DNA from: Candidatus Sulfotelmatobacter sp.
Lineage (GTDB): Bacteria; Acidobacteriota; Terriglobia; Terriglobales; Acidobacteriaceae
Length of the DNA: 64,000 nucleotides
NCBI GenBank assembly: GCA_035272245.1
Contig: DATEQW010000071.1
Coordinates: 42 to 64,041 of the forward strand
Direction: 5' to 3'
The position numbers and the translations under genes are program-made. Each line of letters begins with the position of its first letter. Positions within the stretch are counted from its first letter, which is position 1. Of this stretch, positions 2,291 to 27,354 are shown one piece after another. The notes beneath the pieces were generated by a model. That model ran no database searches and was not told the origin of the DNA. It worked only from the letters and a program-made list of their open reading frames with translations.

Positions 2291-4788
2291 ATGTCAGATG
2301 CGTATTCCGAAATGCTGCGGTCACTTGAAAACTTTCCGGAACTGGCCACGTTCAGGATCGCTTTGTGCGCCCACTCGCCGGGGTCGGCGTACAGTGCACC
2401 CACTCGTTCCTGCGCCTGACAATAAGAGGTCAAGTCGGCCAGGTGCATGTAATGATCGCCGCCAGTCAGCAGCGTATCGCGCAAAGGAGCGAACACTCCC
2501 GGTTCGTTGCGGCTGAAGTGGTCGGAAAAAATCAGGTCGAGAGCGGCTCGAGTCTCCGGTTCGTGGTCATAATGCCAGTACGGGTTGTACCAACCGCGAC
2601 TGTTCTCCACCTGCTCCACCGTCAAACCGAACAGGAACATATTCCCTTCCCCTGCCTCCTCCGCCATCTCGATAGTAGCTCCGTCGCGAGTTCCCACCGT
2701 CAGGGCCCCGTTCATCATGAATTTCATGTTACTCGTTCCGCTGGCCTCGTACCCGGCAGTCGAGATTTGATTCGAGACATCACTGGCCGGAATCAGCCGT
2801 TCTGCCAACGAAACACTGTACTCAGGCAGAAAGAGCACATTGAGTCTTCCGCGCACGGCAGGGTCACCGTCAATTGTTGCCGCCAAGTTATTGATGAATT
2901 TTATGATCAGCTTCGCCAGCGTGTAAGCTGGTGCCGCTTTACCGGCAAAGAAGAATGTGCGCGGCACCATGTTCAAGTCGGGATTCTCCCGCAGCCGGTT
3001 ATAAACAACTACAATTCGCAGCGCATTCATTAATTGTCTTTTGTATTCGTGGATGCGCTTGATCTGGCAATCGAAGATCGTGTTCGGATCGACGATCTGA
3101 CCGGACGTCGTCTTAAGCCAGTTGGCAAACTGCACCTTCGCCGCTTTCTTTGATTTGAGAAACACTTCACGAAAGCTGTGATCTGCAGCAAATGATTTAA
3201 GTTCCTTGAGCTGGCTCAGGTCAGTAGTCCAACGCTCGCCGATCACCTCCGTGATTACACTTGCCATCGCAGGATTGGCTTGCAGCAACCAGCGCCGCGG
3301 CGTCACCCCATTCGTTTTGTTGTTAAAACGCTCAGGGAACATTTCGGCAAGATCCTTGACGGTCACGGTCCGCAACAGTTTTGAGTGAACCGCAGCCACA
3401 CCATTGGTGCTGTGGGTGCCGACGATCGCAAGGTTCGCCATGCGGATCTTCCGCTGGTTGCCTTCTTCCACCAGGCTCACGCGCTGCACGCGTCCCTCGT
3501 CGCCCGGGAACCGACGCCGAACTTCGTCCAGCAACCGTCGGTTAATTTCGTAAATGATCTGCAGATTCCGGGGAAAAAGCGTTTCAAACCAAGCCACGGG
3601 CCATTTCTCCAGAGCTTCGGGCAGCAAGGTATGATTTGTGTACGCGAGCGCCTTCTTCGTCAGGTCCCAGGCCTGGTCCCATCCCAGGTGCGCATCATCT
3701 AGGAGGATTCGCATCAACTCAGACACCGACATGGAGGGATGCGTGTCATTCAATTGAATTGCGACCTTCCCCGGCAATTTGTCCCAATCGGTGTTGTGGC
3801 GCAGGAAACGGCGGATCAGGTCGGCCATTGAGCACGCCACCAGAAAATATTCTTGCAGGAAGCGAAGTCCCTGCCCCTGAGTGGTGGAATCGTCGGGATA
3901 CAGCACGCGGGTAAGTGACTCCGCTTCGAGGGTCTCACCAAGCGCTCCGACGAAATCCCCAGTGTCGAACTTCTCGAGATCGAAATACTCAGGCGCCGCA
4001 GCGGCCCAAAGCCGCAGAGTATTAATCGTCTTTCCGCCATAGCCCACCACGGGACGATCAAATGGAATGCCGATCAGGCTCGACGGCCTGTCTCGGACAA
4101 TCTCAAGCTTACCGGCTCGCAACCTGAATGAAACATTCAGCTTAATTTCCACCTGCTCGTGAGGCCGGGCGATCTCCCAGGGATCGCTGTCGCGCAGCCA
4201 GTTGTCAGGATTCTCTTTCTGCCAACCGTCCACGATCGTCTGCTTGAACATGCCATATTCATAGCGCAGACCGTACCCCGTGCCTGGAAGCTGCATCGTC
4301 GCCATCGAGTCGATAAAGCACGCAGCCAGACGGCCCAGTCCACCGTTGCCCAGTCCCGCATCGGGTTCCTGCTCGAGTAATTCCAGCCAGTCGATATCCT
4401 TCTCTCGAACCACAAGTTGCGCCAGCGGATCGAGCAATAGGTTGGAAACGTTGTTGGCCAGGGAACGGCCGATCAGAAACTCCATGGAAAGGTAATAAAT
4501 GCGTTTGGCGTTCTGTTGTTCATAGGTGGTCTTAGTCTGCACCCAGCGCTGCGCGAGAATATCCCGGATGGAATGAGAAAAAGCTTCAAAGCGTTCACGG
4601 GCGCTCGCTACTTTCGGGTCGATCGCCCGGTCAAAAATCAAATGCCGTTCGTAGAGCGCGCCGTCCGTTCCCGCGAACGGCAGGGAACCGGTCCCGTATT
4701 GTTGCAGTAGCTCTGAAGCTTTGGGTGCGCTCGTCGTCATCGGAACAACTTTCGGGGAGCCGGGCCGTGCCACACTCTTTGTGCTCAT
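2260..4788 (-). CDS. glgP: Glycogen/maltodextrin phosphorylase (GT35)
   Basis: PLP-lysine region [27 protein letters not shown] and typical length. The ORF is open to 4866, but ATG at 4788 ([10 protein letters not shown]) is preceded by AAGGA. Confidence 0.9.
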
Positions 4789-13408: not shown

Positions 13409-15151
13409 TCAAACCAGGCGAACGTTGCGTTCCATTGTCTTAATCACCGAGTCCATGCGGCCGGAGAGCACCTGCTTGGCGAGGCTCAGGGTAAAGCCTT
13501 TGGCCGCGTGAAAGGGCACATGCGACGGCAGCGAGAGGGCAAACGGATCTACGACGGCGTCGACAACGACCGGACCGCCCTCGTATGCGAGTGCCTCGGC
13601 GAGCGCCTCCCGAACATCACCGGGCTCCTCGATGCGGATACCCTTCGCGCCCATTGCTCCTGCGACCTTGGCGAAGTTTGGATTTTTGAAGTCAACTCCG
13701 AAAGGGACAAAGCCGGCCTCTTGCTGCTCGATCTTGACGAAGTCCAGGGAGTCGTTATTCAGGATGATTTGGACGACCGGAGTCTTTCGCTCCACTTGCG
13801 TCAACAGGTCGCCCAGGGCAAGCATCGTGTAGCCCCCGTCGCCGCATAGAGCGATCGTTTGACGGCCAGGGTAGGCCAACTGCGCACCGAACGCATTGGG
13901 CGCGGCATTGGCCATGGACGCCCATGAAAACGAACCGAAGAGTCTGCGATCTCTGCCGCCCCCGATATACCTTGCGAGCCAAATTACTGCCGTGCCGGTG
14001 TCGGCAAAAAACATCGCATCGTCGGAAGCCACGTCATTCAGAGTCGCGGCTAGGAACTCCGGACGGATGGGCTTGATGTCAGGTCCTTTGTCAACGTAAT
14101 GCTGCAATAAATCACGGAAAGAATTGGTCTCCGCGAGCTGCTTGTCGAGAAAGCGGCGATCGGTTTTCTCAGTGACGTTATCAAGCAATGCAGCGACGGT
14201 TGTTTTGACGTCGCCAACCAGCCCAAGATCAACCGCCGTGCGGCGGCCTATGTGCTTGGGGTTCTTATCGATCTGGGCTTTCTTCACACCCTCACCGGGC
14301 AGAAATTCAGAAAACGGAAAATCCGTCCCGAGCAGGAGCAAGAGCTCGGCTTCATTAATTGCGCGATAGGCTCCGCCATAACCGAGCAAGCCGGTCATGC
14401 CCACTGCGTTAGGATTGCGGTGTTCCAGCCACTGCTTGCCGCGAAAGGCGTACCCGACAGGCGCCTTTAGTCTGTCCGCTAATTGCAGCACCTCGTCGCG
14501 AGCATCCCTGCAGCCGTCGCCGCCGAAGATGGCAACTGTTTTCGCGTCGTTGATCATCTCTACGAGCCGACCAAGGTCGGCGTCGGAAGGGCGCAACATG
14601 GGCGTACACGGAATCGTGATCTCGGTCGAGCGCTTGTTCGCATCGGGCATATCAGCCGAGGCGATATCGCCCGGAAGCGAAATTACTGTCGGGCCTTTTT
14701 CCAGGAGCGCCGTACGAATGGCTGTGCTGAAGACGGTGAGCGCCTGCTCGGGATTAACGACGCGTGCGGTATAGAGGGAGGCAGTCTCGAAGAACTTGTA
14801 GGGATTAAGTTCTTCAAGCGCGGCTGTGTCTAAGACGTTGGTCTCGACATCGCCCGCAATGGCGATGATTGGCGCTCCCTCCTTACGCGCATCCATCAGC
14901 CCGTTGAACAGATGGACGACGCCGGGGCCGGCGGTGCCACACACCGCTACGGGATTGCCGCTCAGATAAGCCTCTGCGACAGCGGCGAAAACTCCGTATT
15001 CTTCATGTCTCACATGAACCAACTCGATCTTGCCGTTGCGACGTAAAGCGTCGTTCACAGGATTAAGAGCATCCCCAACGATGCCATAGCAACGTTTGAC
15101 TCCCGCCTTCTCTAACATGGTCCACAGGGCGTCTGCCACTTTTTCCGACAT
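13409..15151 (-). CDS. poxB: Thiamine-diphosphate enzyme, pyruvate oxidase / pyruvate:quinone dehydrogenase (PoxB-like)
   Basis: 580 aa. The N-terminus VADALWTMLEKAGVKRCYGIVGDALNPVNDAL...RHEEYGVFAAVAEAYLSG...GPGVVHLFNGL parallels E. coli PoxB. The TPP-binding GDGGYTM...NN motif is present. Confidence 0.8.
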   Translation of the reverse strand: MSEKVADALWTMLEKAGVKRCYGIVGDALNPVNDALRRNGKIELVHVRHEEYGVFAAVAEAYLSGNPVAVCGTAGPGVVHLFNGLMDARKEGAPIIAIAGDVETNVLDTAALEELNPYKFFETASLYTARVVNPEQALTVFSTAIRTALLEKGPTVISLPGDIASADMPDANKRSTEITIPCTPMLRPSDADLGRLVEMINDAKTVAIFGGDGCRDARDEVLQLADRLKAPVGYAFRGKQWLEHRNPNAVGMTGLLGYGGAYRAINEAELLLLLGTDFPFSEFLPGEGVKKAQIDKNPKHIGRRTAVDLGLVGDVKTTVAALLDNVTEKTDRRFLDKQLAETNSFRDLLQHYVDKGPDIKPIRPEFLAATLNDVASDDAMFFADTGTAVIWLARYIGGGRDRRLFGSFSWASMANAAPNAFGAQLAYPGRQTIALCGDGGYTMLALGDLLTQVERKTPVVQIILNNDSLDFVKIEQQEAGFVPFGVDFKNPNFAKVAGAMGAKGIRIEEPGDVREALAEALAYEGGPVVVDAVVDPFALSLPSHVPFHAAKGFTLSLAKQVLSGRMDSVIKTMERNVRLV

Positions 15152-15359
15152 AGTAATGACCTTTCCCGGCTGGAATACCGATTTCGGACTTCGGGATGCG
15201 GAATACCCGCACCCACTTCATGCCCGCAACATTGTCGTTTTTGCTCCGGTGGGTGGTTCCGGCCTGTGATTGTTCTCGGTGGACTATGCGCTGGTGAAAT
15301 CTGACTCTACAGCGCAAGCTAAACTGATGTCCTCGCTTGAGACAATGTGCGACACGGAC

Positions 15360-15438
15360 GAAATAAAGACATCACGAGATGCAGGGTTTTTTTACTACCA
15401 CTGAAGGCTGCGCAAGAGATACCTCTTTTGTGGTAGGG
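15360..15438 (-). repeat. Conserved upstream element, copy 4 of 4 (core CTGCATCTCGTGATG), in the PoxB-like leader region
   Basis: On the minus strand the order is: CTACCAC, a 28-nt spacer, GTGGTAG, T, A7, CC, CTGCATCTCGTGATG. The two arms form a perfect 7-bp inverted repeat (plus-strand 15395-15401 and 15430-15436). Confidence 0.7.
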
Positions 15439-15545
15439 CGCAGGGAGGGATGGCTTGCCCGCCCTTACTGACAGCCGCAGGGGAGGTAAGCGGAACAATA
15501 TGCAATGGGTTATGATGATCTTCCAATCATCGTCGCGACCGTCCT

Positions 15546-17042
15546 ATGCCGCGGTGGAAACTATCATCGCCGAAGATCCCGTCCGTAATTCAGCGCTACG
15601 GTCTTGCAATTTTGTCCGTTGTGATTGGTCTCGGGATCGGTCTTCTTCTCGAACGCTCGCACTTTCACGACGTAGAATTCCCCCTCTTCCTGTTGGCCAT
15701 CGTCGTAACGGTCTGGTATGCCGGAGTCGGCCCTGGGATTCTTGCAGTCGTACTCTCCAGTTTGGCTTTCGATTTTTTCTTTACCGAGCCCGTTTACAGT
15801 TTTTATGTCAGCAGATCAGAGCTCCCGTACTACTTCGTTTTCATCCTATTCGCGTTGCTTTTGACCTGGTTCAGCGCTGTCCGCCGGCGCGTCGAACGGG
15901 ACCTTCTACAATCCCGCGACGAACTCGAACAAGAAGTGGCCATGCGAACGCAACAGGCCAGCCTGCTTAATCTCACACATGACACAATTTTTGTCCGCGA
16001 CATGAGCGACGTCATCACATACTGGAATCGCGGCGCTCAGGAACTTTACGGGTGGAGGGCCGAGGAAGCGATCGGAAAGCGCTCTCACGATCTCTTGCGG
16101 ACCGTTTTTCCGGCACCGCTCGACGACATAGCCGCCGATCTGCTGCGGAACGGCCGCTGGGAGGGCGAACTCGAGAAAACTAAGTCTGATGGAACCCGAG
16201 TGGTAGTGGCCAGCCGATGGTCCTTGCAACGAAACGAGCAAAGGATCCCGATCGCGATCCTGGAAACTAACAACGACATCACCCAGCGTAAACGAGGCGA
16301 AGAAGAAGTGCGCCAGCTCAACCAGGAACTCGGAAAACGAACCATTGAGCTGGAGGCCATCAATAAGGAGCTGGAAGCATTCGCGTATTCCATATCGCAT
16401 GATCTGCGCGCCCCGCTTCGCCATATGGTCGGCTTTACCGAGCTACTTCAGAAGAATGCTTCTTCAGTGGTGGATGACAAGGGCCGCCGGTACATGACGA
16501 CGATCCTGGAATCGGCAAAGCGGATGGGGACTCTGATCGATGACCTCCTCGCCTTTTCACGGATAGGGCGCGCCGAAGCCCGGGAAAGCATCGTTAATTT
16601 GGAAGAACTGATAAACGAGGTTCGGAGCGAAGTAGCTCAGGAGGCGGAAGGGCGCAATATTACGTGGAAACTCGGCCCGCTGCCCGATCTCTGCGGCGAT
16701 CGTTCGATGCTTAAGCTTGCGCTCGTCAATCTTCTTTCCAATGCGATAAAATTCACGCGCCCGCGTCCACAACCCGAGGTCGAAGTGGGGTGCGCCGAGA
16801 AACAAAACGGCAGGATCGTGATTTTTATTCGAGATAATGGAGTTGGCTTCGATATGAAATATGCAAACAAACTATTCGGCGTGTTCCAGCGTCTTCACCG
16901 CCCCGAAGAGTTTGAAGGCACAGGGATCGGGCTGGCCACAGTTCAGCGCATTATTCGTCGTCACGGTGGTGAGGTCTGGGCTGAGGGGTTCGTGGACAAA
17001 GGTGCAACCTTCTTTTTCTCAGTTCCGAGCCAGAGGAGATAA
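15546..17042 (+). CDS. Membrane sensor histidine kinase with PAS domain
   Basis: N-terminal hydrophobic segments, one PAS domain, H-box FAYSISHDLRAPLRH, and ATPase boxes LLSNAIKF, RDNGVGF and GTGIGLA. Confidence 0.88.
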   Translation: MPRWKLSSPKIPSVIQRYGLAILSVVIGLGIGLLLERSHFHDVEFPLFLLAIVVTVWYAGVGPGILAVVLSSLAFDFFFTEPVYSFYVSRSELPYYFVFILFALLLTWFSAVRRRVERDLLQSRDELEQEVAMRTQQASLLNLTHDTIFVRDMSDVITYWNRGAQELYGWRAEEAIGKRSHDLLRTVFPAPLDDIAADLLRNGRWEGELEKTKSDGTRVVVASRWSLQRNEQRIPIAILETNNDITQRKRGEEEVRQLNQELGKRTIELEAINKELEAFAYSISHDLRAPLRHMVGFTELLQKNASSVVDDKGRRYMTTILESAKRMGTLIDDLLAFSRIGRAEARESIVNLEELINEVRSEVAQEAEGRNITWKLGPLPDLCGDRSMLKLALVNLLSNAIKFTRPRPQPEVEVGCAEKQNGRIVIFIRDNGVGFDMKYANKLFGVFQRLHRPEEFEGTGIGLATVQRIIRRHGGEVWAEGFVDKGATFFFSVPSQRR

Positions 17043-17047
17043 ACATT

Positions 17048-17500
17048 ATGGAATTATTGGGACGCATCTTGATGGTTGAGGACGACCCCAAGGATGTGGA
17101 ACTCACCTTAACTGCACTCGAGGAATACAACCTCAGCAACGAGGTTATCGTTACCCACGACGGCGAGGAGGCCTTGGATTATCTCTATCACCGAGGAAAG
17201 TTCCAGACGCGTGCCAATGGGAATCCTGCTGTCCTGTTGCTGGACTTAAAATTGCCCAAGGTCGACGGACTGGAAGTGCTGCAGCAACTTAAATCGGATG
17301 AGAAGTTGAGAATGATTCCCGTGGTCGTACTCACATCTTCGCGAGAGGAACGGGACATGGTGGCGAGCTACAAACTTGGCGTAAACGCCTACGTGGTAAA
17401 GCCTGTGGATTTCCACGAATTTGTGAATGCCATCAAAGAGCTTGGCGTTTTCTGGGCTATTATCAACGAAGCCCCGCCCGGCAGCATAAAGAAAAAATAG
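17048..17500 (+). CDS. Single-domain response regulator (receiver only)
   Basis: 150 aa with acidic pocket VEDDPKD, phospho-acceptor context LLLDLKLPKVDG, and conserved T and K positions (LTSS, VVKP). Confidence 0.9.
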   Translation: MELLGRILMVEDDPKDVELTLTALEEYNLSNEVIVTHDGEEALDYLYHRGKFQTRANGNPAVLLLDLKLPKVDGLEVLQQLKSDEKLRMIPVVVLTSSREERDMVASYKLGVNAYVVKPVDFHEFVNAIKELGVFWAIINEAPPGSIKKK

Positions 17501-17515
17501 CGGTATGTATCGTAT

Positions 17516-20500
17516 TTGAATCTGATCGACACAACCGTGATTTCTCCTATCAAAATTCTTCATCTTGAAGACGACCCCAAGGACGCAGAGCTTCTTCAGG
17601 CAACCCTGGAAGCCGAAGGCGTCCCCTGTCATATCGCTCGTGTTGAAGCGGAACCCGAGTTCTCCGCCTCTCTGAAGCAAAGTAGTTTTGATTTGATCCT
17701 CGCGGACTATACCCTTCCCTCTTTCGACGGCATTTCTGCGTTGAAAATTGCCAAAGAAATCCGCCCTGACGTGCCGTTCATCTTCGTTTCCGGAACTCTG
17801 GGCGAAGAAGTGGCCATTGAGGCGCTCAAGATGGGGGCAACGGATTATGTCTTCAAAACACGCCTTTCGAGAATCCTGCCCTCGGTGCAGCGAGCCGTGC
17901 GGGAGGGTGAGGAGCGAGCCGAGCGCAGACGGGCTGAGGAGGCTTTACGCACGAGCGAAAAGAGGTTCCGGCTCATTTTTGAATCCATTCCGGGCCTCAT
18001 CGCGGTGCAGACGGCGGCGGGTGAGCTGGAACTGGTCAACCATCGACTCCTGGAATATTTCGGCAAGACCCTTGAGGAACTGAAAGCTTGGGCCACCAAC
18101 GATGTCGTCCATCCGGATGACCTCGCCCGCGTAAGAGCGGCGTGGAAGCGATCCGTCGAGACCGGGCAACCCTACGACGATGAGCACCGAATCCGCCGCG
18201 CCGATGGCACATACCGTTGGTTTCACGTGCGCGGACTCCCGCTGCGGGACGCAGACGGTCGGATCGTCCGTTGGTACGAGTTGTTTACTAATATTGATGA
18301 CCGCAAGACGGCCGAGCAGGCGCTACGCCGGAACGAAGCTTACTTAGCGGAAGCACAGAGGTTAAGCCACACAGGCAGTTTCGGCTGGCATGTTTCAAGC
18401 GGCGAGATTTATTGGTCCGAGGAAACCTTCCGCATATTCGGTTTCGAAGTTACCTCCATCCCAACATTGGAACGTGTGCGCCAACGCACTCACCCGGACG
18501 ACAGACCCGCTTTGCAAGAACTACTCGAGCGTGTTTCGCGCGACAGGACGGAGTTTGATCTTGAACATCGGCTGCTGATGCCGGATGGATCCGTAAAATA
18601 CTTGCAAGTCGTGGGACGTCCGTCCAAGGACAAAACCGGCAACTTTGAATTTGTGGGAGCAGTAACCGACATCACCGAGCGCAAGCATGCGGAATCCCTC
18701 TTAGCTGCAGAAAAGCGCTCGCTGGAGATGATCGCCAGTGGTGCGAGTCTCAGCGCTATTTTGGAAGATTTGTGTAGTGCCATCGATGCTCAGTCTCCTG
18801 GGGTCATCTCGTCGGTTCTGCTGACAGATACCGAAGGGAAGAGGTTGTGGCCGGCAGCAGGGCCCAAAGCGCCCAAAGGCTGGAGTCAGGCCATTGCTGG
18901 CGGGGCGATCGGTCCAAGGGCAGGCTCGTGCGGAACGGCAGCATTCCGCAAGAAGCGCGTGATCACCTCGGATATCGCCACCGACCCTTTATGGATCGAT
19001 TATCGCGACCTCGCCTTAAGCCATGGACTGCGTGCGTCCTGGTCGCAGCCACTTATTTCGAAAAATAACGAGGTGCTTGGCACCTTCGCCATGTACTACG
19101 CGGAGCCCAGAAGCCCCGACGGCAGCGATCTTCAATTGATTGAAGCGGCGGGACACATTGCCGTCATCGCGATTGAGCGACGGCGCGCTGAAGAAGCGTT
19201 GCAGGAAAGCGAAGAGCGTTTTCGCCACATGGCAGATGCCCTTCCTGAGGTCATGTGGATCACTGGCTTGGATCCAGAAAGACCGCTGTATACGAGCCCA
19301 AGCTTTGAACGCATTTGGGGCTTCCCCGTCTCAGATCTCTCTGGGAATCCGCGTCTATGGACGGAGAGGATTCATCCCGACGACCGCGCCCGTGTGATCG
19401 ACATTTTCTCCCGCTGGATAGCTGGTGAAAATGTCAGTTATCGGGACGTTGAGTTTCGCATCGTCCACCCAAATGGCGAAATCCGCTGGATTCACGAGCG
19501 GGGAGTCCTCAGTCTCAACGAGTACGGCAAGCCGTACCGCGCCAGCGGCATTTCCACGGACATCACCGCCCGCAAGAAGGCGGAAGCCAAGTTCCGCGAG
19601 TTGCTGGAAGCGGCCCCGGACGCGATGGTGGTGGTGAATCGGGAAGGCAAGATTGTATTGATCAACGCCCAGGTAGAGAGAATGTTCGGATACCGCCGCG
19701 AGGAACTGCTGAACCGGCAAATTGAGGTGCTGGTGCCCGAGCGCTTCCGCAGTCAACACCCTCAAAGCCGAGCGCGCTTTTTTAGCGAGCCTCGAGTACG
19801 TCCGATGGGCGCAGGGCTGGAATTATACGGATTGCACAAGGACGGTCATGAATTCCCGGTGGAGATTAGCCTGAGCCCGCTCGAAACGGAAGACGGTACG
19901 TTAGTCTCAAGCGCGATCCGCGACATCAGCGCTCGCAAGCAGGCGGAGTCTTTACTCCGAGAAAGCGAGCAGCGTTTTCGAACCATCTTCGATGAGGCAG
20001 GTACGGGCATCGCTTTGATCGATCTCGTATCCGGCGGACCGATTGAGAACAACCGCGCTCTGCAGAGGATGCTTGGCCGCACCCAGGACGAACTCGGACG
20101 GATTGAGACGTACGACGAATTGACCTGCGAAGAGGACCGAGAAGCGGACGCCATTCTGTACCGTGAACTTTGCGAAGGGAAGCATGAGACTCTTCGGCAC
20201 GAAAAGCATCTTGTCCTCAAAGATGGCAGGTCCGTGTGGGCAAATGTCGTTTTTACTCTCTTGCGTGACTGTGAAGGGCGCCCTAAACGCGTCATCGCCA
20301 TACATGAGGACATCACCGACCGCAAGCGGGCCGAAGAGACTTTGCGGAAAAGTGAACAGCGCCTTCGCGATGTGATCGAAACGATTCCCATCATGGCATG
20401 GACCGCGCTCCCCGACGGGGCCAACGATTTCGCGAATCAGCGTTGGCAGGAATACACCGGGATATCATTGCAGGACACATCGGGCGCCGGCTGGAAGATG

Positions 20501-22159
20501 GCGCTGCATCCTGCAGACATTGCTACCCACGTTGAAAAGTGGCGCGAGTCGTTGGCTACCGGGAAGCGGTTCGAAAATGAAGCACGCCTGAAAAGATCTG
20601 CGGATGGGCAATGCCGCTGGTTCCTGCATCGAGGCGTCCCTCTTCGCGACGAGCGCGGAGAGATCGTCAAGTGGTACGGAACGGCCACCGACATTGAGGA
20701 TAGCAAGCGCGCAGAGGAGGCTCTGCGAGACAGCGAGTCCCGCTTAGCGGAGGCACAGAGGCTCAGCCATTCGGGAAGCTGGGCATGGAACTTTGTCACC
20801 AATAGTGTTTACTGGTCGGAGGAAGCATTTCGAATTTACGGCTTCGACCCAGCGACCATCCCCACCAGGGAACTTTTCCAGCAGCGGGTTCATCCTGACG
20901 ATCTGGCAGCCGTGGAGGCAGCAAGCGCTGATCTTCTCGCGGGCCGCGATGGGGAATCCAACTTTCGTCTGGTTCTTCCCGACAACTCAATCAAGCATGT
21001 TCACAGCGTTGCTCACGCAGTCACCGATGAAAATGGCAAGGTCGTTGAGTTTGTCGGAACCGTGGTGGATGTCACCGAACAACGGAATGCCCACGAAGCA
21101 TTGAAGAAGGCTTTCGAAGAAATCAGAACTCTGCGCGATCAGCTTTACAAGGAAAACATTGCCCTCCGCGATGAGGTCGACAAGGCATCGATGTTTGAGG
21201 AGATTGTCGGTGATTCACCAGGACTACAATCCCTCCTCGCGCGTGTCAGCAAGATCGCGCCTTCGGATGCCACGGCTCTTATCACCGGTGAAACGGGCAC
21301 CGGAAAAGAACTCATCGCGCGAGCCATCCACAAGCGGTCCCGGCGCTCTTCCCGGGCATTTGTCACGGTGAATTGTGCGGCTACTCCCTCGTCGTTAATC
21401 ACCTCGGAGTTGTTCGGTCACGAGAAGGGAGCTTTCACCGGTGCGCTGCAGCGGCGCCTCGGCCGGTTTGAGCTTGCCGAAGGAGGCACAATCTTCCTGG
21501 ATGAGGTCGGGGAACTCCCCATGGAGACTCAGATCGCATTGCTGCGCGTTTTGCAAGAGCGGGAGTTTGAACGAGTTGGGGGCAACCAAACCATTCGCAC
21601 GGACGTGCGGGTGATTGCGGCGACCAATCGCGACTTGCAAGCGGCGATTGCCTCGGGTGCGTTTCGAAGCGACCTGTTTTATCGGCTGAATGTAATCCCT
21701 ATGCAGATTCCACCCCTTCGCGAGCGAAAAGAGGACATTCCTCTCTTGGTGGAGTACTTCATCAATCGCTATTCAAGAAAGGCTGGAAAGAGAATACGGA
21801 CCATAGAAAAGAAAACGTTGGAGCTATTGCAGTCGTATTCCTGGCCGGGAAATATCCGCGAACTCCAGAACGTGATCGAGCGTTCCGTCGTAGTCTGTGA
21901 GACCGAAACGTTTTCGGTGGACCAAGGCTGGTTCTCTCACTCGGTGCCATCCCTGCGGGAAGAAGAACGCGAAGTCAAGTCTCCTAGCCGACGATCAGCT
22001 GCTCAAGAGAGAGAAATAATCGAGGCGGCGCTGGCACAAGCCGGCGGCCGCGTCTCGGGACCCTCGGGCGCGGCAGCTCAACTGGGCATGCCCGCTTCCA
22101 CCCTGGAATCCAAGATCCGGACCCTCAAGATCAATAAATATCGGTTCAAAAGCGCATAG
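17516..22159 (+). CDS. Giant sigma-54-dependent transcriptional activator: REC, about 7 PAS/PAC, GAF, AAA+, Fis-type HTH
   Basis: Receiver at the N-terminus ([10 protein letters not shown]...[13 protein letters not shown]). Repeated coiled-coil plus PAS starts ([26 protein letters not shown] and similar). Walker [15 protein letters not shown] loop (HEKGAFTGA) and a C-terminal HTH ([19 protein letters not shown]). The start is uncertain: TTG at 17516 or GTG at 17537. Confidence 0.9.
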
Positions 22160-22192
22160 AAGGCTCTCGAATCGGTTTCTCGCCGCGATTTT

Positions 22193-22237
22193 TTCGCGAA
22201 AAATTCGTGAATTCGCGAACTTCGCGAACTTCGCGAC
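22193..22237. repeat. Array of five TTCGCGAA-type palindromes (9-11 bp spacing)
   Basis: TTCGCGAA at 22193, 22212 and 22221, TTCGTGAA at 22204, and TTCGCGAC at 22230. The array lies between the activator stop (22159) and the STAS gene. Confidence 0.8.
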
Positions 22238-22280
22238 TCCGAATTTCCACAGGTTTCCTTACTTTTCAACTGGTTGCGAA

Positions 22281-22296
22281 TGGCAATCCCGGTGCC
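22281..22296 (+). promoter_or_regulatory. Candidate sigma-54 (-24/-12) promoter
   Basis: TGGCAATCCCGGTGCC has correct GG-N10-GC spacing (consensus TGGCAC-N5-TTGC). It lies 33 nt upstream of the ATG at 22329 and 45-90 nt downstream of the palindrome array. Confidence 0.4.
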
Positions 22297-22328
22297 CTTG
22301 TAGTTGGCGACCACCGAGAAGAGAGCCG

Positions 22329-22607
22329 ATGCTAAGGATCCAGCGCTTATTAAATGAAGGAATCGTCTTCGCCTTGACGGGTCGAGTCGGGATCGAAGAC
22401 ATCGCCGAGTTGCAGCGACTTTTCAGTTTGGAAGAAACCGGTCGCCGCTTTGCTCTTGATTTAGAAGAAGTTACGCTCATCGATCGGGATGCGGTGAAGT
22501 TTTTGGCAAGCTGCGAGGCGGACAGCATCGCGCTCGAAAATTGCCCAGGCTACATACGCGTCTGGGTTGACCGCGAAAAAAAACGAGATCAACAACTGGC
22601 TAACTGA
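22329..22607 (+). CDS. Small STAS-domain (anti-sigma-antagonist-like) protein
   Basis: 92 aa. FALTGRVGIEDIAELQRL...FALDLEEVTLIDRDAVKFL resembles the STAS beta-alpha core. The usual phospho-Ser position reads DRDA. Confidence 0.6.
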   Translation: MLRIQRLLNEGIVFALTGRVGIEDIAELQRLFSLEETGRRFALDLEEVTLIDRDAVKFLASCEADSIALENCPGYIRVWVDREKKRDQQLAN

Positions 22608-23193
22608 CGTCAAACCAAACCGAGATCCGGGAGTCATCGCCATGAATTTGAATGGTTTTTGCCAAGACGGCCCACAACTAAGTGCTCAGTTCCAGCAGAT
22701 TCCCAGTGGGTCTGAGGGTATCGCTCAGGATAGGTCCGCCGATGCGGATAACGACCTGGAAATTGCCTTCTCACGCATTCGTCAAGAGGTGCGTCTCGGA
22801 TCACGGATGGTTTTCCGCATGGTCATCCGAGGTAAATCCCGAGCGCTCGATCCGATAATACGAGACGAAGCCTATCGCATTGGGCGGGAGGCTTTGGTCA
22901 ACGCATTCCTCCACTCCGGGGCCGCCCGCGTCGAGGTCGATCTCGAGTACGCCCCAAGGCAATTCCGCATTTCTGTGCGTGACGATGGGAAAGGCATAAC
23001 GCCCGAATTGCTGCGGTCGGAGTGTAGTCATCAGGGCCTTACCGAAATTCGGGATCTTGCGCAACGAATGGGCGCGAAACTCAAGTTGTTAAGTCGAGTT
23101 GAAGCGGGAACGGAAGTCGAATTGTCGATACCGGCTCACATTGCATTCGCGTCAGAGACAAACCATCGCCAATTGGAATGTGCGGCAGCCTGA
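22567..23193 (+). CDS. HisKA_3-type histidine kinase remnant: ATPase domain retained, no sensor domain, H-box degenerate
   Basis: N-box REALVNAFLH, G1 VRDDGKGI and G2-like GLTEIRDLAQRMGAKLKLLS are present. Where the HDxxxQxL H-box is expected the sequence reads QDGPQLSA. The ORF overlaps the STAS ORF by 41 nt. An alternative ATG is at 22642. Confidence 0.6.
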   Translation: MTAKKNEINNWLTDVKPNRDPGVIAMNLNGFCQDGPQLSAQFQQIPSGSEGIAQDRSADADNDLEIAFSRIRQEVRLGSRMVFRMVIRGKSRALDPIIRDEAYRIGREALVNAFLHSGAARVEVDLEYAPRQFRISVRDDGKGITPELLRSECSHQGLTEIRDLAQRMGAKLKLLSRVEAGTEVELSIPAHIAFASETNHRQLECAAA

Positions 23194-23233
23194 AGCAGGA
23201 AAACACGAACCATTGGTTTGCAGGGAGATCGAA

Positions 23234-23863
23234 ATGACAACGCCAGCCCAGATCCATATCCTGACCGTCGATGATCATCCTTTGCTCCTGGAGGGGTTAG
23301 CGGCCGTAATCCAGAGCCAGCCAGACATGCTCCTCGTTGGACAAGCTTCGAATTGCCGCGATGCAATCCAACAGTTCCGAAAACTTCGACCGGACGTCAC
23401 CCTGATGGACCTGAGATTGCCAGACATGAGCGGAATCGACGCGATGATGGCCATCCAGGCCCAATACCCGGACGCTCGTATCATTATTATGACGACGTTT
23501 GAGGGCGATGGCCCGGTTCAACACGCCCTTCAGGCCGGCGCTCGTTCCTACATTCTTAAGAACATGCCGCCGAGAGAGATAGCAGACGTCATCCGACAAG
23601 TTCATGCGGGCAGCAAGTGTGTGCCCGCGGAAATTGCCGCCACCATGGCTGAACACCTCGGTGATGAGAAACTGACAGATCGTGAAGTTGATGTTTTGAG
23701 GCAGACCGCGGGCGGAAATCGCAATCGTGACATAGCAGACACACTCTTCATCGCGGAGGAGACTGTAAAAGCGCACATGAAACACATCATGGAGAAGCTT
23801 GGCGCAAGCGACCGCACGCATGCTGTCACCATCGCCGCCCGGCGTGGCATTATTCAACTGTAG
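23234..23863 (+). CDS. NarL/LuxR-family response regulator
   Basis: Receiver domain (ILTVDDHPLL...TLMDLRLPDMSG) plus a LuxR HTH (LTDREVDVLRQTAGGNRNRDIADTLFIAEETVKAHMKHIMEKLG). GGGAGATCGAA precedes the ATG at 23234. Confidence 0.9.
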   Translation: MTTPAQIHILTVDDHPLLLEGLAAVIQSQPDMLLVGQASNCRDAIQQFRKLRPDVTLMDLRLPDMSGIDAMMAIQAQYPDARIIIMTTFEGDGPVQHALQAGARSYILKNMPPREIADVIRQVHAGSKCVPAEIAATMAEHLGDEKLTDREVDVLRQTAGGNRNRDIADTLFIAEETVKAHMKHIMEKLGASDRTHAVTIAARRGIIQL

Positions 23864-24015
23864 GCTCGCTTCCGGGAAATACTTCCAGGTAATCGCTCAA
23901 TTCCTTGGCCTTGGCAACTCGCAACGAGGCCGATTCTTGCGTCTACTGTTCAGAATGCGAGCGACGAGAAAATCACCCGCTAGCCCTTCCTCATCGTTAG
24001 AAGCATCCATGTGCC

Positions 24016-24112
24016 GCTAACCCGAACGAGGTACCCCTCCACAAAACTCCCGTGGTAGAAAAAAAATACTGCATCTCGTAATGTGTTTCCGCGAGCAATC
24101 TGTGAAAGTACT
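24016..24112 (+). repeat. Conserved upstream element, copy 1 of 4
   Basis: GCTAACCC, a 28-nt spacer, GTGGTAG, A8, TA, CTGCATCTCGTAATG, then ...CGCGAGCAATCTGTGAAAGTA. It ends 107 nt upstream of the dksA/traR-like ATG. Confidence 0.7.
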
Positions 24113-24218
24113 TCGTCAGTGAACCTGCGCATGCCATCGCGTGACACAACAACAGTAGAGAATTTTGTAGTGCGCTTTTGTTCGCAGGCTCTAGCCATTC
24201 CATTTCGAGGGAAAGAAT

Positions 24219-24608
24219 ATGTCACCTCAATTTCCGTTTGATAGCCCCATCCTTTTGCAGTTCAACAGCGGTCTGCGCGAACTGCAGAACAAGTTGCAGG
24301 AACTAATTGAAAAAGCGGAAAAGGAAATTCGAGAATTCGCCGATCTTGGACCTCAGGATGCGGTGGATATCTCGTGCTTCAACTCTTCCAAGGAGTCCAT
24401 GTTTGCCGACAGTAGCCGGAACCGCAACCAGCTACGTCTGGTCCAGCGCGCACTGGAGCGCATTCGCGATGGTAGTTTTGGAATTTGCGCCAGCTGTGAG
24501 GGTGCGATCGGCCTCGAACGGCTACAGGCTGTCCCTTGGACCAGGCACTGTATTCAATGCCAGGAGCAATTCGAGCACGGCAGACGGCAAGACTGGATGA
24601 CCGCGTGA
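24219..24608 (+). CDS. DksA/TraR-family C4 zinc-finger protein
   Basis: 129 aa with a coiled-coil N-half and CASCEGAIGLERLQAVPWTRHCIQCQ (CxxC-N17-CxxC). GAGGGAAAGAAT precedes the ATG. Confidence 0.85.
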   Translation: MSPQFPFDSPILLQFNSGLRELQNKLQELIEKAEKEIREFADLGPQDAVDISCFNSSKESMFADSSRNRNQLRLVQRALERIRDGSFGICASCEGAIGLERLQAVPWTRHCIQCQEQFEHGRRQDWMTA

Positions 24609-24617
24609 CTTATTGCT

Positions 24618-24712
24618 CCTACCCGAAGGTGGTACGGATTCGCAGGCCTTCTGGGGCACGAAAAAAGTACTGCATCTCGTGATGCGTTCCCAGCGGCGTC
24701 GTGTGAAAGTGG
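24618..24712 (+). repeat. Conserved upstream element, copy 2 of 4
   Basis: CCTACCC, spacer, GGGGCACG, A6, GTA, CTGCATCTCGTGATG, then ...GTGTGAAAGT. It starts 10 nt after the dksA-like stop and ends 49 nt before the next ATG. Confidence 0.7.
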
Positions 24713-24760
24713 ATCACACGCAATAGGTGACAAGAGTCGCGAGAGAAGAAGGAGTCTTTT

Positions 24761-24955
24761 ATGGAGAGGCTGATTGACATTCTCGACTTCGTGTTTGGTT
24801 GCCACCACGGTCATCTGAGCCGCGTCTTCAGCATCGACGGGCGAACTTACCGGGTGTGTTGCGACTGTGGAGCGAAATTCAAATATTCGTTGGCCAGCAT
24901 GTGCATCGAACGAAAGTTGCGAGTGTTAGATGCTCCACACGCGACGCTGACCTGA
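24761..24955 (+). CDS. Small Cys/His-rich zinc-ribbon-like protein (64 aa), conserved hypothetical
   Basis: GCHHGHLSRVF...TYRVCCDCGAKFKYS. GAAGGAG lies 6 nt upstream of the ATG. Confidence 0.55.
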   Translation: MERLIDILDFVFGCHHGHLSRVFSIDGRTYRVCCDCGAKFKYSLASMCIERKLRVLDAPHATLT

Positions 24956-25053
24956 TCCGGAAGCGACCTGCGGGGTGAGCGCAGAGATCCGTGAAACCTT
25001 CGGATCATTCCTCGGGACTGAGCGTATGCCGCCGATAGAACCCGCCTGGATAT

Positions 25054-25356
25054 TCAACCCGACCCAAAAAGGTCTTCGCGATTCAGCATCGTACTTTCCA
25101 CGATAGTAATTTCGACCTGTCGCGAAAGGCTTTGAATAATCGGATGCCCCGAGCCGTCGAGGCCTAGCGTGCTGGTCAAACTGCAGGTCTCGCAAAGCCA
25201 CAAAAACAACGGAGTACCGCCAGCCTTCGTGCTTCCCGAGGTAGAGATATTTCGCGATATTCTCGGGAAACTAGCGGCCTCAAAAACAAACAGCTTACCG
25301 TGTCCGAGCCGCCGGAATGGAGCGGAGCACGAGGGATTAGCGCACTTACCAACCAA
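25054..25356 (-). CDS. Small zinc-ribbon-like protein (100 aa), conserved hypothetical
   Basis: N-terminal CANPSCSAPFRRLGHGKLFVFE and a later WLCETC pair. TTG start with GGAGGAG 4 nt upstream. It sits directly downstream of the oxidoreductase gene. Confidence 0.55.
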   Translation of the reverse strand: MVGKCANPSCSAPFRRLGHGKLFVFEAASFPRISRNISTSGSTKAGGTPLFLWLCETCSLTSTLGLDGSGHPIIQSLSRQVEITIVESTMLNREDLFGSG

Positions 25357-25427
25357 CTAGCTCCTCCGAATGAGTAACTCTTTTTGAATCCGCTAAAACG
25401 GCGAAACCAACTGACGCCGGGAGAACT

Positions 25428-26372
25428 CTAGGTCGCGTCCGTTACCCTCAGGACGATTTTGCCTCGCTTGTGCGGCGCACCCGCGAGCATTTCATGCGCC
25501 ATGCACGCTTCCTCGAGTGGTACTGTCGTGCCCACCTGAGAAATCAGTTCCCCGCCTTCAAACAACTTCGAGATCGTATCCAGACGGGCTTTGGTCACCT
25601 CTACAATGAAGAAGACGGAGCGAACGTCGCGATGTTGCGGTGTTTCAGAAAACGGCGACACAACCGACACGAGGATCCCGCCCTGCTTCAAAACGCTAAA
25701 CGATCGCTCCCGCGTATCTCCTCCAACCGTGTCGATCACCACGTCGACAGGCGGCACAACATCCTCGAACTTTGTCGTCTTGTAGTTCACAATTTGCTCA
25801 GCGCCCAAACGTCGTACATACTCGAGATCGGAGGGCCCCGCAGTTGCGAAGATCTTCAAGCCTGCATTCTTCGCGAGTTGCACGGCATATGCGCCCACGT
25901 TGCCCGCCGCTCCATGGATAAGAATCGTTTGTCCGGTTTTCGCTTCAGCATGCTCGAACAACATCTGCCAGGCAGTGACCGCTACGACTGGCGCCGAAGC
26001 AGCCTCCAGAGAGCTCAGCGATTTCGGCTTTCGGGCCACCATCTCGGCTGACGCCAGCGCATACTCCGCGTAAGCACCGATAAATTGTTGGTTGGTAACC
26101 CCGTAAACTTCTTCACCCAACTCAAAATCCGTGACTCCCGCTCCGACGGCTTCGATTACTCCGCACACGTCGGACCCAAGAGTGAGTGGCAGCGGTGATT
26201 CGACGACGCTCTTGTGTTCTCGGATGAGCGCATCCCAAGGCCCAACCCCGGCGGCAGCAACCCGTACCTGCAACTCACCTGGGCCCGGTGTTGGACGCGG
26301 CAGCTCGTCGATCACGATCACATCTGGCGGACCGAATTGATGAATCCTCGCTGCTTTCATGGCTTTGTTCAT
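25428..26372 (-). CDS. NADPH:quinone oxidoreductase / zinc-type alcohol dehydrogenase superfamily (MDR)
   Basis: MKAARIHQFGPPDV N-terminus and Rossmann motif IHGAAGNVGAYAVQLAK. The start could be 26393 (GTG), 26372 or 26360. Confidence 0.88.
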   Translation of the reverse strand: MNKAMKAARIHQFGPPDVIVIDELPRPTPGPGELQVRVAAAGVGPWDALIREHKSVVESPLPLTLGSDVCGVIEAVGAGVTDFELGEEVYGVTNQQFIGAYAEYALASAEMVARKPKSLSSLEAASAPVVAVTAWQMLFEHAEAKTGQTILIHGAAGNVGAYAVQLAKNAGLKIFATAGPSDLEYVRRLGAEQIVNYKTTKFEDVVPPVDVVIDTVGGDTRERSFSVLKQGGILVSVVSPFSETPQHRDVRSVFFIVEVTKARLDTISKLFEGGELISQVGTTVPLEEACMAHEMLAGAPHKRGKIVLRVTDAT

Positions 26373-26558
26373 TTCACCGCGACTCGTTGACACGCAGGAA
26401 TTTCATCAGGGCGCCGGTCGCCAGTCCGAATGTCATCGGAAGAACCCGCTCACCAGTCCAATTGTGCGTATGTGCCAGCAAACTAACCAGGAGAAGCAAA
26501 CCAAGCACAATCTCCGGGCGCCGAAAATCTTTTCGTAGGAAAGTAAAAGGGCCATGAT

Positions 26559-26657
26559 CCCTACTCTCGCAGGTTGCTCCGCGTGGCGCGTCACGAGATG
26601 TAGTGTTTTTCTTCTACCCCGGATGACTGGTGGATGCGTAACTCCTTCGGGGTAGCT
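26559..26657 (-). repeat. Conserved upstream element, copy 3 of 4
   Basis: On the minus strand the order is: CTACCCC, a 28-nt spacer, GGGGTAG (perfect 7-bp arms), AAGAAAAA, CA, CTACATCTCGTGACG, then ...CGCGGAGCAACCTGCGAGAGTA. Confidence 0.7.
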
Positions 26658-26810
26658 GGCCGACGCGCAGCGGCATGATCGAACCGTAAGAGGCGGGACT
26701 GCCGACGTGGCCTGCGCTCGCACCGGACCATAGCGCCGTCCTGTGGCGCTGCAGCCCGCTCTCGGTTGCATTTTTCTGCAGGCGGTTAGCAAAGCCAGAT
26801 TGCCCGGCTT

Positions 26811-26981
26811 TCAGGCAGCCTCGTCGTCCTCCAGCCCCCAATACTTCAGCAGTTCGGTCGGCACATACTTCTGGTCCTTATTCTTCTGGACCCATTCTTT
26901 CAATGGCAGGGAATCTTTGTATTGGTCGGGTCGGATACCCAGGATGGCGACGACGTGATCGAAAGAACTGGCTTGGTCCAT
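26811..26981 (-). CDS. Small conserved hypothetical protein (56 aa)
   Basis: MDQASSFDHVVAILGIRPDQYKDSLPLKEWVQKNKDQKYVPTELLKYWGLEDDEAA. GAGGTG lies 5 nt upstream of the ATG at 26981. The longer ORF open to 27101 has no such signal. Confidence 0.5.
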   Translation of the reverse strand: MDQASSFDHVVAILGIRPDQYKDSLPLKEWVQKNKDQKYVPTELLKYWGLEDDEAA

Positions 26982-27354
26982 GGCACACCTCATGTTTGTT
27001 GTAGGTTTCTGGCATTCTAGCGGTCGGGTATTAAAGGAGCGTAAAACTTCAAAATCAGTAGTGCCGGAGAGTCGAAGATGGAGGCGGCAAGATCGAATCA
27101 TCCCAATCGTCTTTTGCGTGAATTTTTATAGGAGTTCAGCAACCCGCACACACCGGGACTAACAAGTTTCCGTGCGCCGGGACGTGTACTCGAATTCGAG
27201 ATGTTGGCAGAGATCCAGCATAGTAGCGATTAGAGCGATCCGCGAACCTTCGCGCAACTCCGGCGCCTCTTAGTCGTCGTCATAGCTGGGACGCTTATCT
27301 TGGCCCCTCCAGCCGATGACTGCAGTCACGCCTAAACAGTATCCGGATACGAAC

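Follow-up and report, generated by a model that had tools for sequence, protein, structure and literature searches.

The window analysed here, a 64,000-nucleotide stretch of contig DATEQW010000071.1 from Candidatus Sulfotelmatobacter sp., contains four non-coding repeats of about 95 bases. Copy 1 faces the gene of a DksA/TraR-type zinc-finger protein, copy 2 that of a 64-amino-acid (aa) CxxC protein, copy 3 an operon of a short open reading frame (mini-ORF), a quinone oxidoreductase gene and a zinc-ribbon gene, and copy 4 the gene of a PoxB-like enzyme (Table 1). An earlier reading of the sequence, the initial annotation, had listed the four copies and had every one of them oriented with the next gene. 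All four were recovered, with strands as listed and coordinates essentially so, and a co-directional gene was found behind each. The degenerate core pattern AAAANNNCTRCATCTCGTRAYG (22 nt, including the A-tract) matched exactly these four sites, with 0.00 matches expected from dinucleotide-preserving shuffles of the window, and a search of the window with a hidden Markov model (HMM) of the family returned only the same four copies. A repeat finder on its own paired copies 4 and 1 (72 nt, 72% identity).

From 5' to 3' the element consists of a palindrome TACCnCG-AA-CGnGGTA (7-2-7, two heptamers around two bases), a heptamer GTGGTAG, an A-tract, the core CTGCATCTCGTGATG, a spacer and the block TGnGAnAGT with a -10-like hexamer. 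The core is exact in copies 2 and 4 and differs at one position in copy 1 and at two in copy 3. It is 15 bp long and symmetric in its conservation (CAT...G.GATG); its 3' end, ATGYGY, occupies the -35 position. Positions within the element are numbered from a predicted transcription start about 7 nt after the hexamer. The 3' block had been assigned to copies 1 to 3 only, copy 4 being taken as cut short. This had to be corrected, as copy 4 also has a 3' block, with the hexamer CACATT; its predicted 5' untranslated region is about 185 nt long.

Table 1. Coordinates of the element copies, their parts and the genes around them; window positions unless a locus (L number) or a position relative to the inferred transcription start is given.
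Feature	Position	Strand	Remark
Copy 1, type I promoter module	24017-24109	+	faces DksA/TraR-type gene
Copy 1 palindrome	24018-24033	+	7-2-7, TAACCCGAACGAGGTA
Copy 1 heptamer	24052-24058	+	GTGGTAG
Copy 1 A-tract	24059-24066	+	A8
Copy 1 core	24069-24083	+	CTGCATCTCGTAATG
Copy 1 TG	24101-24102	+	
Copy 1 -10-like hexamer	24104-24109	+	GAAAGT
Copy 1 predicted transcription start	~24116	+	
Copy 2	24619-24710	+	faces 64-aa CxxC gene
Copy 2 palindrome	24620-24634	+	15 nt (7-1-7), 1-nt deletion
Copy 2 third heptamer	24653-24659	+	degenerate, GGGGCAC
Copy 2 A-tract	24661-24666	+	A6
Copy 2 core	24670-24684	+	exact
Copy 2 TG	24702-24703	+	
Copy 2 -10-like hexamer	24705-24710	+	GAAAGT
Copy 2 predicted transcription start	~24717	+	
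Copy 3	26655-26563	-	faces mini-ORF operon
Copy 3 palindrome	26654-26639	-	
Copy 3 heptamer	26620-26614	-	GGGGTAG
Copy 3 A-rich tract	26613-26606	-	
Copy 3 core	26603-26589	-	CTACATCTCGTGACG
Copy 3 TG	26571-26570	-	
Copy 3 -10-like hexamer	26568-26563	-	GAGAGT
Copy 4	15436-15344	-	faces PoxB-like gene
Copy 4 palindrome	15435-15420	-	TACCACAAAAGAGGTA
Copy 4 heptamer	15401-15395	-	GTGGTAG
Copy 4 A-tract	15393-15387	-	A7
Copy 4 core	15384-15370	-	exact
Copy 4 -10-like hexamer	15349-15344	-	CACATT, without TG
Element palindrome	centred near -90		16 bp, 7-2-7
Element single heptamer	~-64 to -58		GTGGTAG
Element A6-A8 tract	~-57 to -50		UP-element or DNA-bend position
Element core	~-47 to -33		imperfect palindrome CATC-N4-GATG, 3' half at usual -35 place
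Element extended -10-like block	-15 to -7		TGnGAnAGT
DksA/TraR-type C4 zinc-finger protein	24219-24608	+	129 aa, behind copy 1
CxxC protein	24761-24955	+	64 aa, behind copy 2
Mini-ORF	26433-26555	-	40 aa, behind copy 3, heads operon
Quinone oxidoreductase (Qor), zinc-dependent alcohol dehydrogenase type	26393-25428	-	after mini-ORF
Zinc-ribbon gene	25356-25054	-	100 aa, after quinone oxidoreductase gene
PoxB-like thiamine pyrophosphate enzyme	13409-15151	-	pyruvate dehydrogenase [ubiquinone]/pyruvate oxidase type, behind copy 4
Sigma-54 activator	first of 17516-23193	+	1547 aa; REC, several PAS, GAF, AAA+, HTH_8
STAS-like protein	22329-22607	+	92 aa
Kinase remnant	22567-23193	+	208 aa; HATPase_c kept, no recognisable H-box (HisKA_3)
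NarL-family response regulator	23234-23863	+	REC + GerE; likely start M 23234, open frame from 23099
Type II element	L005	-	26 nt after regulator stop
Type II elements	L098 2271; L102 2258; L121 2256; L154 4158; L162 4154		
Extracytoplasmic function (ECF) sigma loci preceded by the element	L098 4723-5469; L102 3185-3936; L121 3393-4145; L157 4761-5565; L162 4769-5574		
Further element-preceded ECF-sigma loci	L100; L126; L158-160; L163-165		

The element is conserved across the soil order Terriglobales. A scan for the exact pattern, in which each prokaryotic species was represented by one genome, gave 69 loci. Of these, 51 came from 36 Terriglobia species genomes (Terriglobales) and all 51 showed the whole architecture of about 95 bp outside the searched pattern; the other 18, from unrelated phyla, had the pattern only, the flanking architecture being absent. 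Conservation in related genomes, a check proposed with the initial annotation, was thus found. Carriers include Acidobacteriaceae, for example the cultured Granulicella aggregans (M8UP14, with the element at L042 672-781 on the minus strand), and Candidatus Sulfotelmatobacter (Korobacteraceae), with one to five pattern matches per species genome. The HMM added about 11 diverged copies within the pattern-found loci. As this set is conditioned on the core, a second one was fetched from a metagenome scan by the CxxC protein alone, no motif being used. Upstream sequence of 250 nt or more was available at 68 metagenomic CxxC-gene loci, and 50 of these carried the element upstream of the gene, on the same strand and ending 15-130 nt before the start codon. 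The consensus of this gene-anchored set is cTacCcCgAAcG.GgTAc ... CaagcCt.ccGtGGtAg.aAAAAAacaCTgCATcTCGTGATG.Gtt ... TGcgAaAgT; the core varies here, with CAT, one central G and GATG as its most conserved positions. The palindrome is present in almost all of the 64 pattern-anchored and 67 gene-anchored copies. That the block is non-coding, as the initial annotation had it, agrees with the unrelated genes behind it in many genomes, with its contiguous conservation and with the lack of codon periodicity.

The distance between core and hexamer is nearly constant. A gap of 20-21 nt, variable in sequence, was measured in 65/66 gene-anchored and 48/54 pattern-anchored copies. In the gene-anchored copies TG stands at -15/-14 in 61/66, A at -11 in 66/66 and T at -7 in 65/66, frequencies that are inflated by a best-match search over 11 offsets, which leaves the spacing result unaffected; among the pattern-anchored copies just 25/54 have the TG. 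Sequence conservation ends right after the hexamer and does not extend toward the ribosome-binding site, and the distance from the element to the start codon ranges from 15 to more than 130 nt. At the quinone-oxidoreductase copies (copy 3 and six relatives) the ATG of the 40-aa ORF follows the hexamer by 6-7 nt in all seven loci, and no conserved Shine-Dalgarno sequence was found there; the mRNA of this mini-ORF is probably leaderless. The position of its ATG independently fits a transcription start about 7 nt past the hexamer. The product, MALLLSYEKIFGARRLCLVCFSWLVCWHIRTIGLVSGFFR, is hydrophobic and contains a CxxC motif; its length is kept in the seven loci and its C-terminal two-thirds are almost invariant.

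Clustering of the ORFs around all copies brought out a 209-aa REC-GerE response regulator, which is very highly conserved. Its gene usually lies after that of a HisKA_3 histidine kinase and before that of a DoxX/DoxD-like membrane protein, and in many different contexts this set of genes stops immediately before the element; in the window the regulator gene ends 154 nt before copy 1. Of 34 distinct regulator genes, 33 had the palindrome no more than about 200 nt past their stop codon, counting both element types described below. When homologues of the regulator were fetched by protein identity, without use of the element, a full element was located within about 1 kb in six of seven contexts. 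The best NCBIfam model for the regulator is NarL (E = 4e-49), at 166.7 bits against a curated cut-off of 250, and because the score falls under this cut-off the protein is not a NarL orthologue or equivalog. Its helix-turn-helix (HTH) domain has 49% identity to the one in E. coli NarL, and its recognition helix reads TVKVH(I/V)KH in most lineages against TVKVHVKH in NarL (K-V-H-x-K). NarL reads bases via K188, V189 and K192 and binds 7-2-7 sites (PMC10853779), its heptamer consensus being TACYYMT (PMC4886647). The heptamers of the element, TACC(C/T/A)C(G/A), fit this consensus at positions 1-4 and 6, and position 5 is mostly C or T, with A in some. The TACC/GGTA heptamers are candidate binding sites of the 209-aa regulator.

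Scanning for the 16-bp palindrome with a weight matrix brought out a second promoter-like architecture, type II, with the layout TACCnCnAAAGTGGTA-G-GAAAAGA-TTCC..TAGGGATTC-N~18-TAnnCT, where the TAnnCT looks like a canonical -10. Type II begins 8-67 nt past the stop codon of the regulator gene, upstream of the DoxX/DoxD-like gene, and is present at 26 of the 34 regulator genes but not in the window lineage, which has copy 1, of type I, in that place. The -10 was set separately for each type, and GTGGTAG with the A-rich module fell at matching coordinates in the two types (about -65 to -50), which supports both -10 assignments. Since the palindrome/heptamer module also occurs in type II, it is separable from the core. 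The two types differ jointly in their -35 and -10 regions, and their -35-region blocks end at nearly one position. This amounts to a modular promoter design, with one regulator module and two core-promoter modules.

Each copy is probably a composite promoter/operator of about 95 bp, acting as double-stranded DNA and marking one Terriglobales regulon under NarL-like two-component control. A shared promoter/operator was one of two options left by the initial annotation, and it is the one that agrees with the hexamer at a fixed 20-21 nt, the variable start-codon distance, the shared palindrome and the linkage to a NarL-type gene. In the model that we infer, which covers binding, the sigma factor used, the transcription start and the inducing signal, the phosphorylated NarL-family regulator, encoded with its HisKA_3 kinase beside many copies, would bind the TACC/GGTA heptamers and recruit or stabilise RNA polymerase. 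The core would be read by a second factor, perhaps region 4 of a sigma factor or a transcription factor that acts as a dimer, and transcription would begin about 7 nt after the hexamer. The symmetry and the 15-bp length of the core suggest that a dimer binds near -38.5, which is a class-II-like position.

Several observations weigh against this interpretation. No TTGACA-like -35 was found and a simple scan for the sigma-70 consensus calls none of the copies. At -12 the hexamer carries G or C, and at -8 most copies have G; the inflation of the -10 base frequencies also counts here. The core, the most conserved block, is not accounted for by a NarL-like regulator. Position 7 of the heptamers is G or A where the NarL consensus has T, and in the window lineage the recognition helix reads TVKAHMKH, with Ala where NarL has Val189. 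Finally, pairing in the outer arms is in weak excess over shuffles (5/500 and 2/500), an excess that lies inside the false-positive range stated by the tool for related sequences.

The other option of the initial annotation was an RNA leader with CTACCNC/GNGGTAG as stem arms. A structured RNA (5' leader, riboswitch-like or small RNA), with GCATC/GATGC as a further stem, would explain the inverted repeats within individual copies, the small excess of paired or covarying cells in the outer arms and the variable start-codon distance, but it is now very improbable. In the scan against Rfam 15 proposed with the initial annotation, Acido-1 and Acido-Lenti-1 included, no match reached the gathering score in the whole window, and at E <= 10 only an unrelated miRNA match at 22160 was returned for 15000-27000, so that no RNA family was recovered. 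Folding energies of the four copies are no better than those of shuffles on either strand (z-scores +0.6 to -1.6 over both strands, -0.3 to -1.3 forward). RNAalifold predicted 0 pairs on both strands for the 64 pattern-anchored and the 67 gene-anchored copies, two independent alignments. The outer arms CTACCnCG/CGnGGTAG can pair in only 66-69% of cells and the inner palindrome in 62%, under the shuffled expectation. None of three candidate helices and a small core hairpin was supported by consensus structure or pair counts, the hairpin varying so little that covariation is uninformative. Variable arm columns are mostly unpaired (for example 40/63 at columns 10/43), and therefore the arms are conserved as sequence, like protein half-sites, and not as a helix. 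Conservation, moreover, stops at the -10-like motif. At locus L056 (4190-4305) two divergent copies form near-perfect mirror images around one palindrome, TACCACATTTGGGGTA (4239-4254), each with its own heptamer, A-tract, core and -10-like block; three further divergent pairs were found. Such sharing comes naturally to a bidirectional operator; in an RNA it would be awkward, requiring overlapping antisense 5' ends. On one side of the L056 pair lie a DUF308 gene and then genes for a likely 4-alpha-glucanotransferase and a transaldolase (judged from N-terminal sequences), on the other a likely phosphoglucomutase gene.

The main rival to a promoter/operator under NarL-like control reads the core, especially CGTGATG at about -39 to -33, and GAnAGT as the -35 and -10 of a dedicated ECF-type sigma factor, with the NarL-like sites modulating. 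In the fetched loci the ECF-sigma genes of one family are all preceded by the element, a hallmark of autoregulation, and a divergent sigma-like gene follows it in L004 and L047; the hexamer departs from TATAAT at -12 and -8, and types I and II share the upstream module while differing together in the -35 and -10 regions. We nevertheless consider this reading unlikely. The TG at -15/-14 is conserved, and recognition of TG at this position falls to sigma region 3, a region absent from ECF sigmas. A symmetric 15-bp core (CAT...ATG) is a better fit to a dimeric factor than to a single sigma domain, and no such sigma gene lies within the window. The spacing of 20-21 nt between GATG and hexamer is long for the sigma-70 family and above all for ECF sigmas; the ECF41 promoter has a spacer of 16 +/- 1 and a CGTC -10 (PMC3426412). 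Least credible is a mobile repeat of the repetitive extragenic palindrome or miniature inverted-repeat transposable element kind, lacking a regulatory role. The window does hold several copies within a few kilobases, with copies 1 and 2 as direct repeats flanking the DksA gene where relatives have a single hybrid copy. Yet with one to five pattern matches per species genome the copy number is low, the element keeps the same position before orthologous genes across two Terriglobales families and a constant orientation to the downstream gene, neither terminal inverted repeats nor target-site duplications were observed, and conservation in blocks around a variable spacer is as in protein-binding sites. 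The initial annotation had held that a lack of orientation and position bias would indicate such a repeat; both biases were found among the fetched loci.

Further known signals were compared and set aside. Sigma-54 promoters carry GG and GC elements 12 nt apart (TGGCAC-N5-TTGC). This type was considered on account of the adjacent giant enhancer-binding protein, but from the GG of GGTAG to the GC of CTGCAT there are 17 nt in all four copies, and in the consensus the TGC at -15 to -13 has no GG at a distance of 12 nt on its 5' side. Sigma-54 activator genes are frequent neighbours of the element nonetheless. Pairing the A-tract/AAC with CGT, or TGCATC with the downstream -10, in the manner of ECF promoters gave spacings of 9 nt or 25-28 nt. 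LexA, Fur/Zur, IHF and CRP/FNR boxes were considered, with no convincing match. A simple scanner flagged the core hairpin and T-run of copy 2 as a reverse-strand terminator; the stem is only 5 bp with the T-run 5 nt off, and the terminator calls equal chance expectation in number.

In other genomes the CxxC protein gene is by far the commonest gene behind the element. Chloroperoxidase-type alpha/beta hydrolases follow it in at least six contexts, and genes for epoxide hydrolase, glyoxalase, DUF1269, DUF308, MarC, a 6PGD-like dehydrogenase, an HlyD-type protein, a GH28 glycoside hydrolase and a likely phosphoglucomutase were also found, together with two sigma-54 activators, FixJ-like response regulators and ECF or ECF-like sigmas. 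In operons headed by the element, genes of the ferritin/Dps, AhpC/redoxin and DsbA-like types come at later positions. The initial annotation had proposed a stress or stationary-phase regulon. The wider list is consistent with this as far as gene names and content go, and would fit an oxidative, electrophile or general stress programme. Every ECF-sigma gene of the one family in the fetched loci stands directly behind a full type I element, and in L157-160 the sigma gene is followed by genes for ferritin/Dps and alpha/beta hydrolases. The sigma-like gene of L004 and L047 is more divergent, and the window contains no homologue of the element-preceded ECF sigma.

The Terriglobales are among the most abundant soil bacteria, and the element provides a sequence-searchable marker for one conserved regulon, with the 209-aa NarL-family response regulator and its HisKA_3 kinase as candidate master regulator. 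A more speculative and rather doubtful extension is that the core and the unusual -10 form the promoter class of a Terriglobales-specific general-stress switch, in which the NarL-type system would gate an autoregulated ECF sigma and the CxxC zinc protein would be the sigma partner (anti-sigma or RNA-polymerase-binding factor). In this reading the CxxC gene, which is ubiquitous, always comes first after the element and frequently sits right before the sigma gene. If true, the element would serve across the order as the signature of a regulon for stress or dormancy, in bacteria that count among the most abundant in soil.

No Pfam or NCBIfam family matched the 64-aa CxxC protein, and its named hits are all 'hypothetical' or 'uncharacterized membrane protein'. 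Relatives are encoded at at least 464 metagenomic loci, and in several lineages the gene stands directly upstream of the element-preceded ECF-sigma gene. Invariant residues are F12, G13, C14, H15, H16, S20, F23, Y30, V32, C33, C36, A38, F40 and Y42. An AlphaFold2 model from a 42-sequence alignment is of low confidence (mean predicted local distance difference test score 59.6, predicted template modelling score 0.34).

Three genes on the same strand precede the regulator gene in the window (17516-23193). The PAS units repeated in the first, the 1547-aa activator, account for the direct-repeat family D1 of the repeat finder. The place of the kinase remnant is occupied by full kinases in other lineages. 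In L002, L046 and L071, which are without the DksA-like gene, one hybrid element lies between the regulator and CxxC genes, its 5' half like copy 1 and its 3' half almost identical to copy 2. Either the DksA gene arrived by an insertion that brought a duplicated element with it, or recombination of the two direct repeats removed the gene. Copy 4 is situated in a divergent intergenic region (15152-15545), with its palindrome about 110 nt upstream of the opposite PAS histidine-kinase gene (15546-17042), which heads a long regulatory cluster on the same strand. The palindrome might serve both directions.

Neither the element nor its regulators are described in the literature searched (Acidobacteria promoter motif, stress regulon) or in Rfam 15. 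Signatures of autoregulated alternative sigmas, such as ECF41 (TGTCACA-N16-CGTC), likewise put one bipartite motif before the sigma and stress-type genes, whereas the element has a spacer of 20-21 nt, a conserved TG, an upstream block of 15 bp and about 45 bp more of conserved upstream operator. With class II extended -10 promoters (CAP; LuxR/TraR-type boxes overlapping -35) it has in common the TG at -15/-14 and a CATC-N4-GATG that replaces the -35 near -38.5, a centre that depends on the predicted transcription start; CAP binds at -41.5 (PMC10853779). Compared by eye, the sequence is unlike the consensus of the CRP, FNR, lux and tra boxes. From the E. coli NarL/NarP promoters (yeaR, ogt, nirB) the element differs in its sites at about -90 and -61 instead of -43.5, in G or A instead of T at heptamer position 7, in a regulator under the NarL cut-off (166.7 vs 250 bits), in a regulon without nitrate-respiration genes and in a 15-bp core, near-invariant at most positions, that has no counterpart there. 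Shared with them are the inverted heptamers with a 2-bp gap and outer TACC...GGTA (compare the copy 1 palindrome with the yeaR site TAACCAATAAATGGTA), the possibility of extra single or second sites, as in ogt at -44.5 and -77.5, and a nearby NarL-family REC-GerE regulator with a K-V-H-x-K helix and a HisKA_3 kinase. The element is best read as a previously undescribed member, as far as the searched literature goes, of a kind already known, the two-component-dependent promoter.

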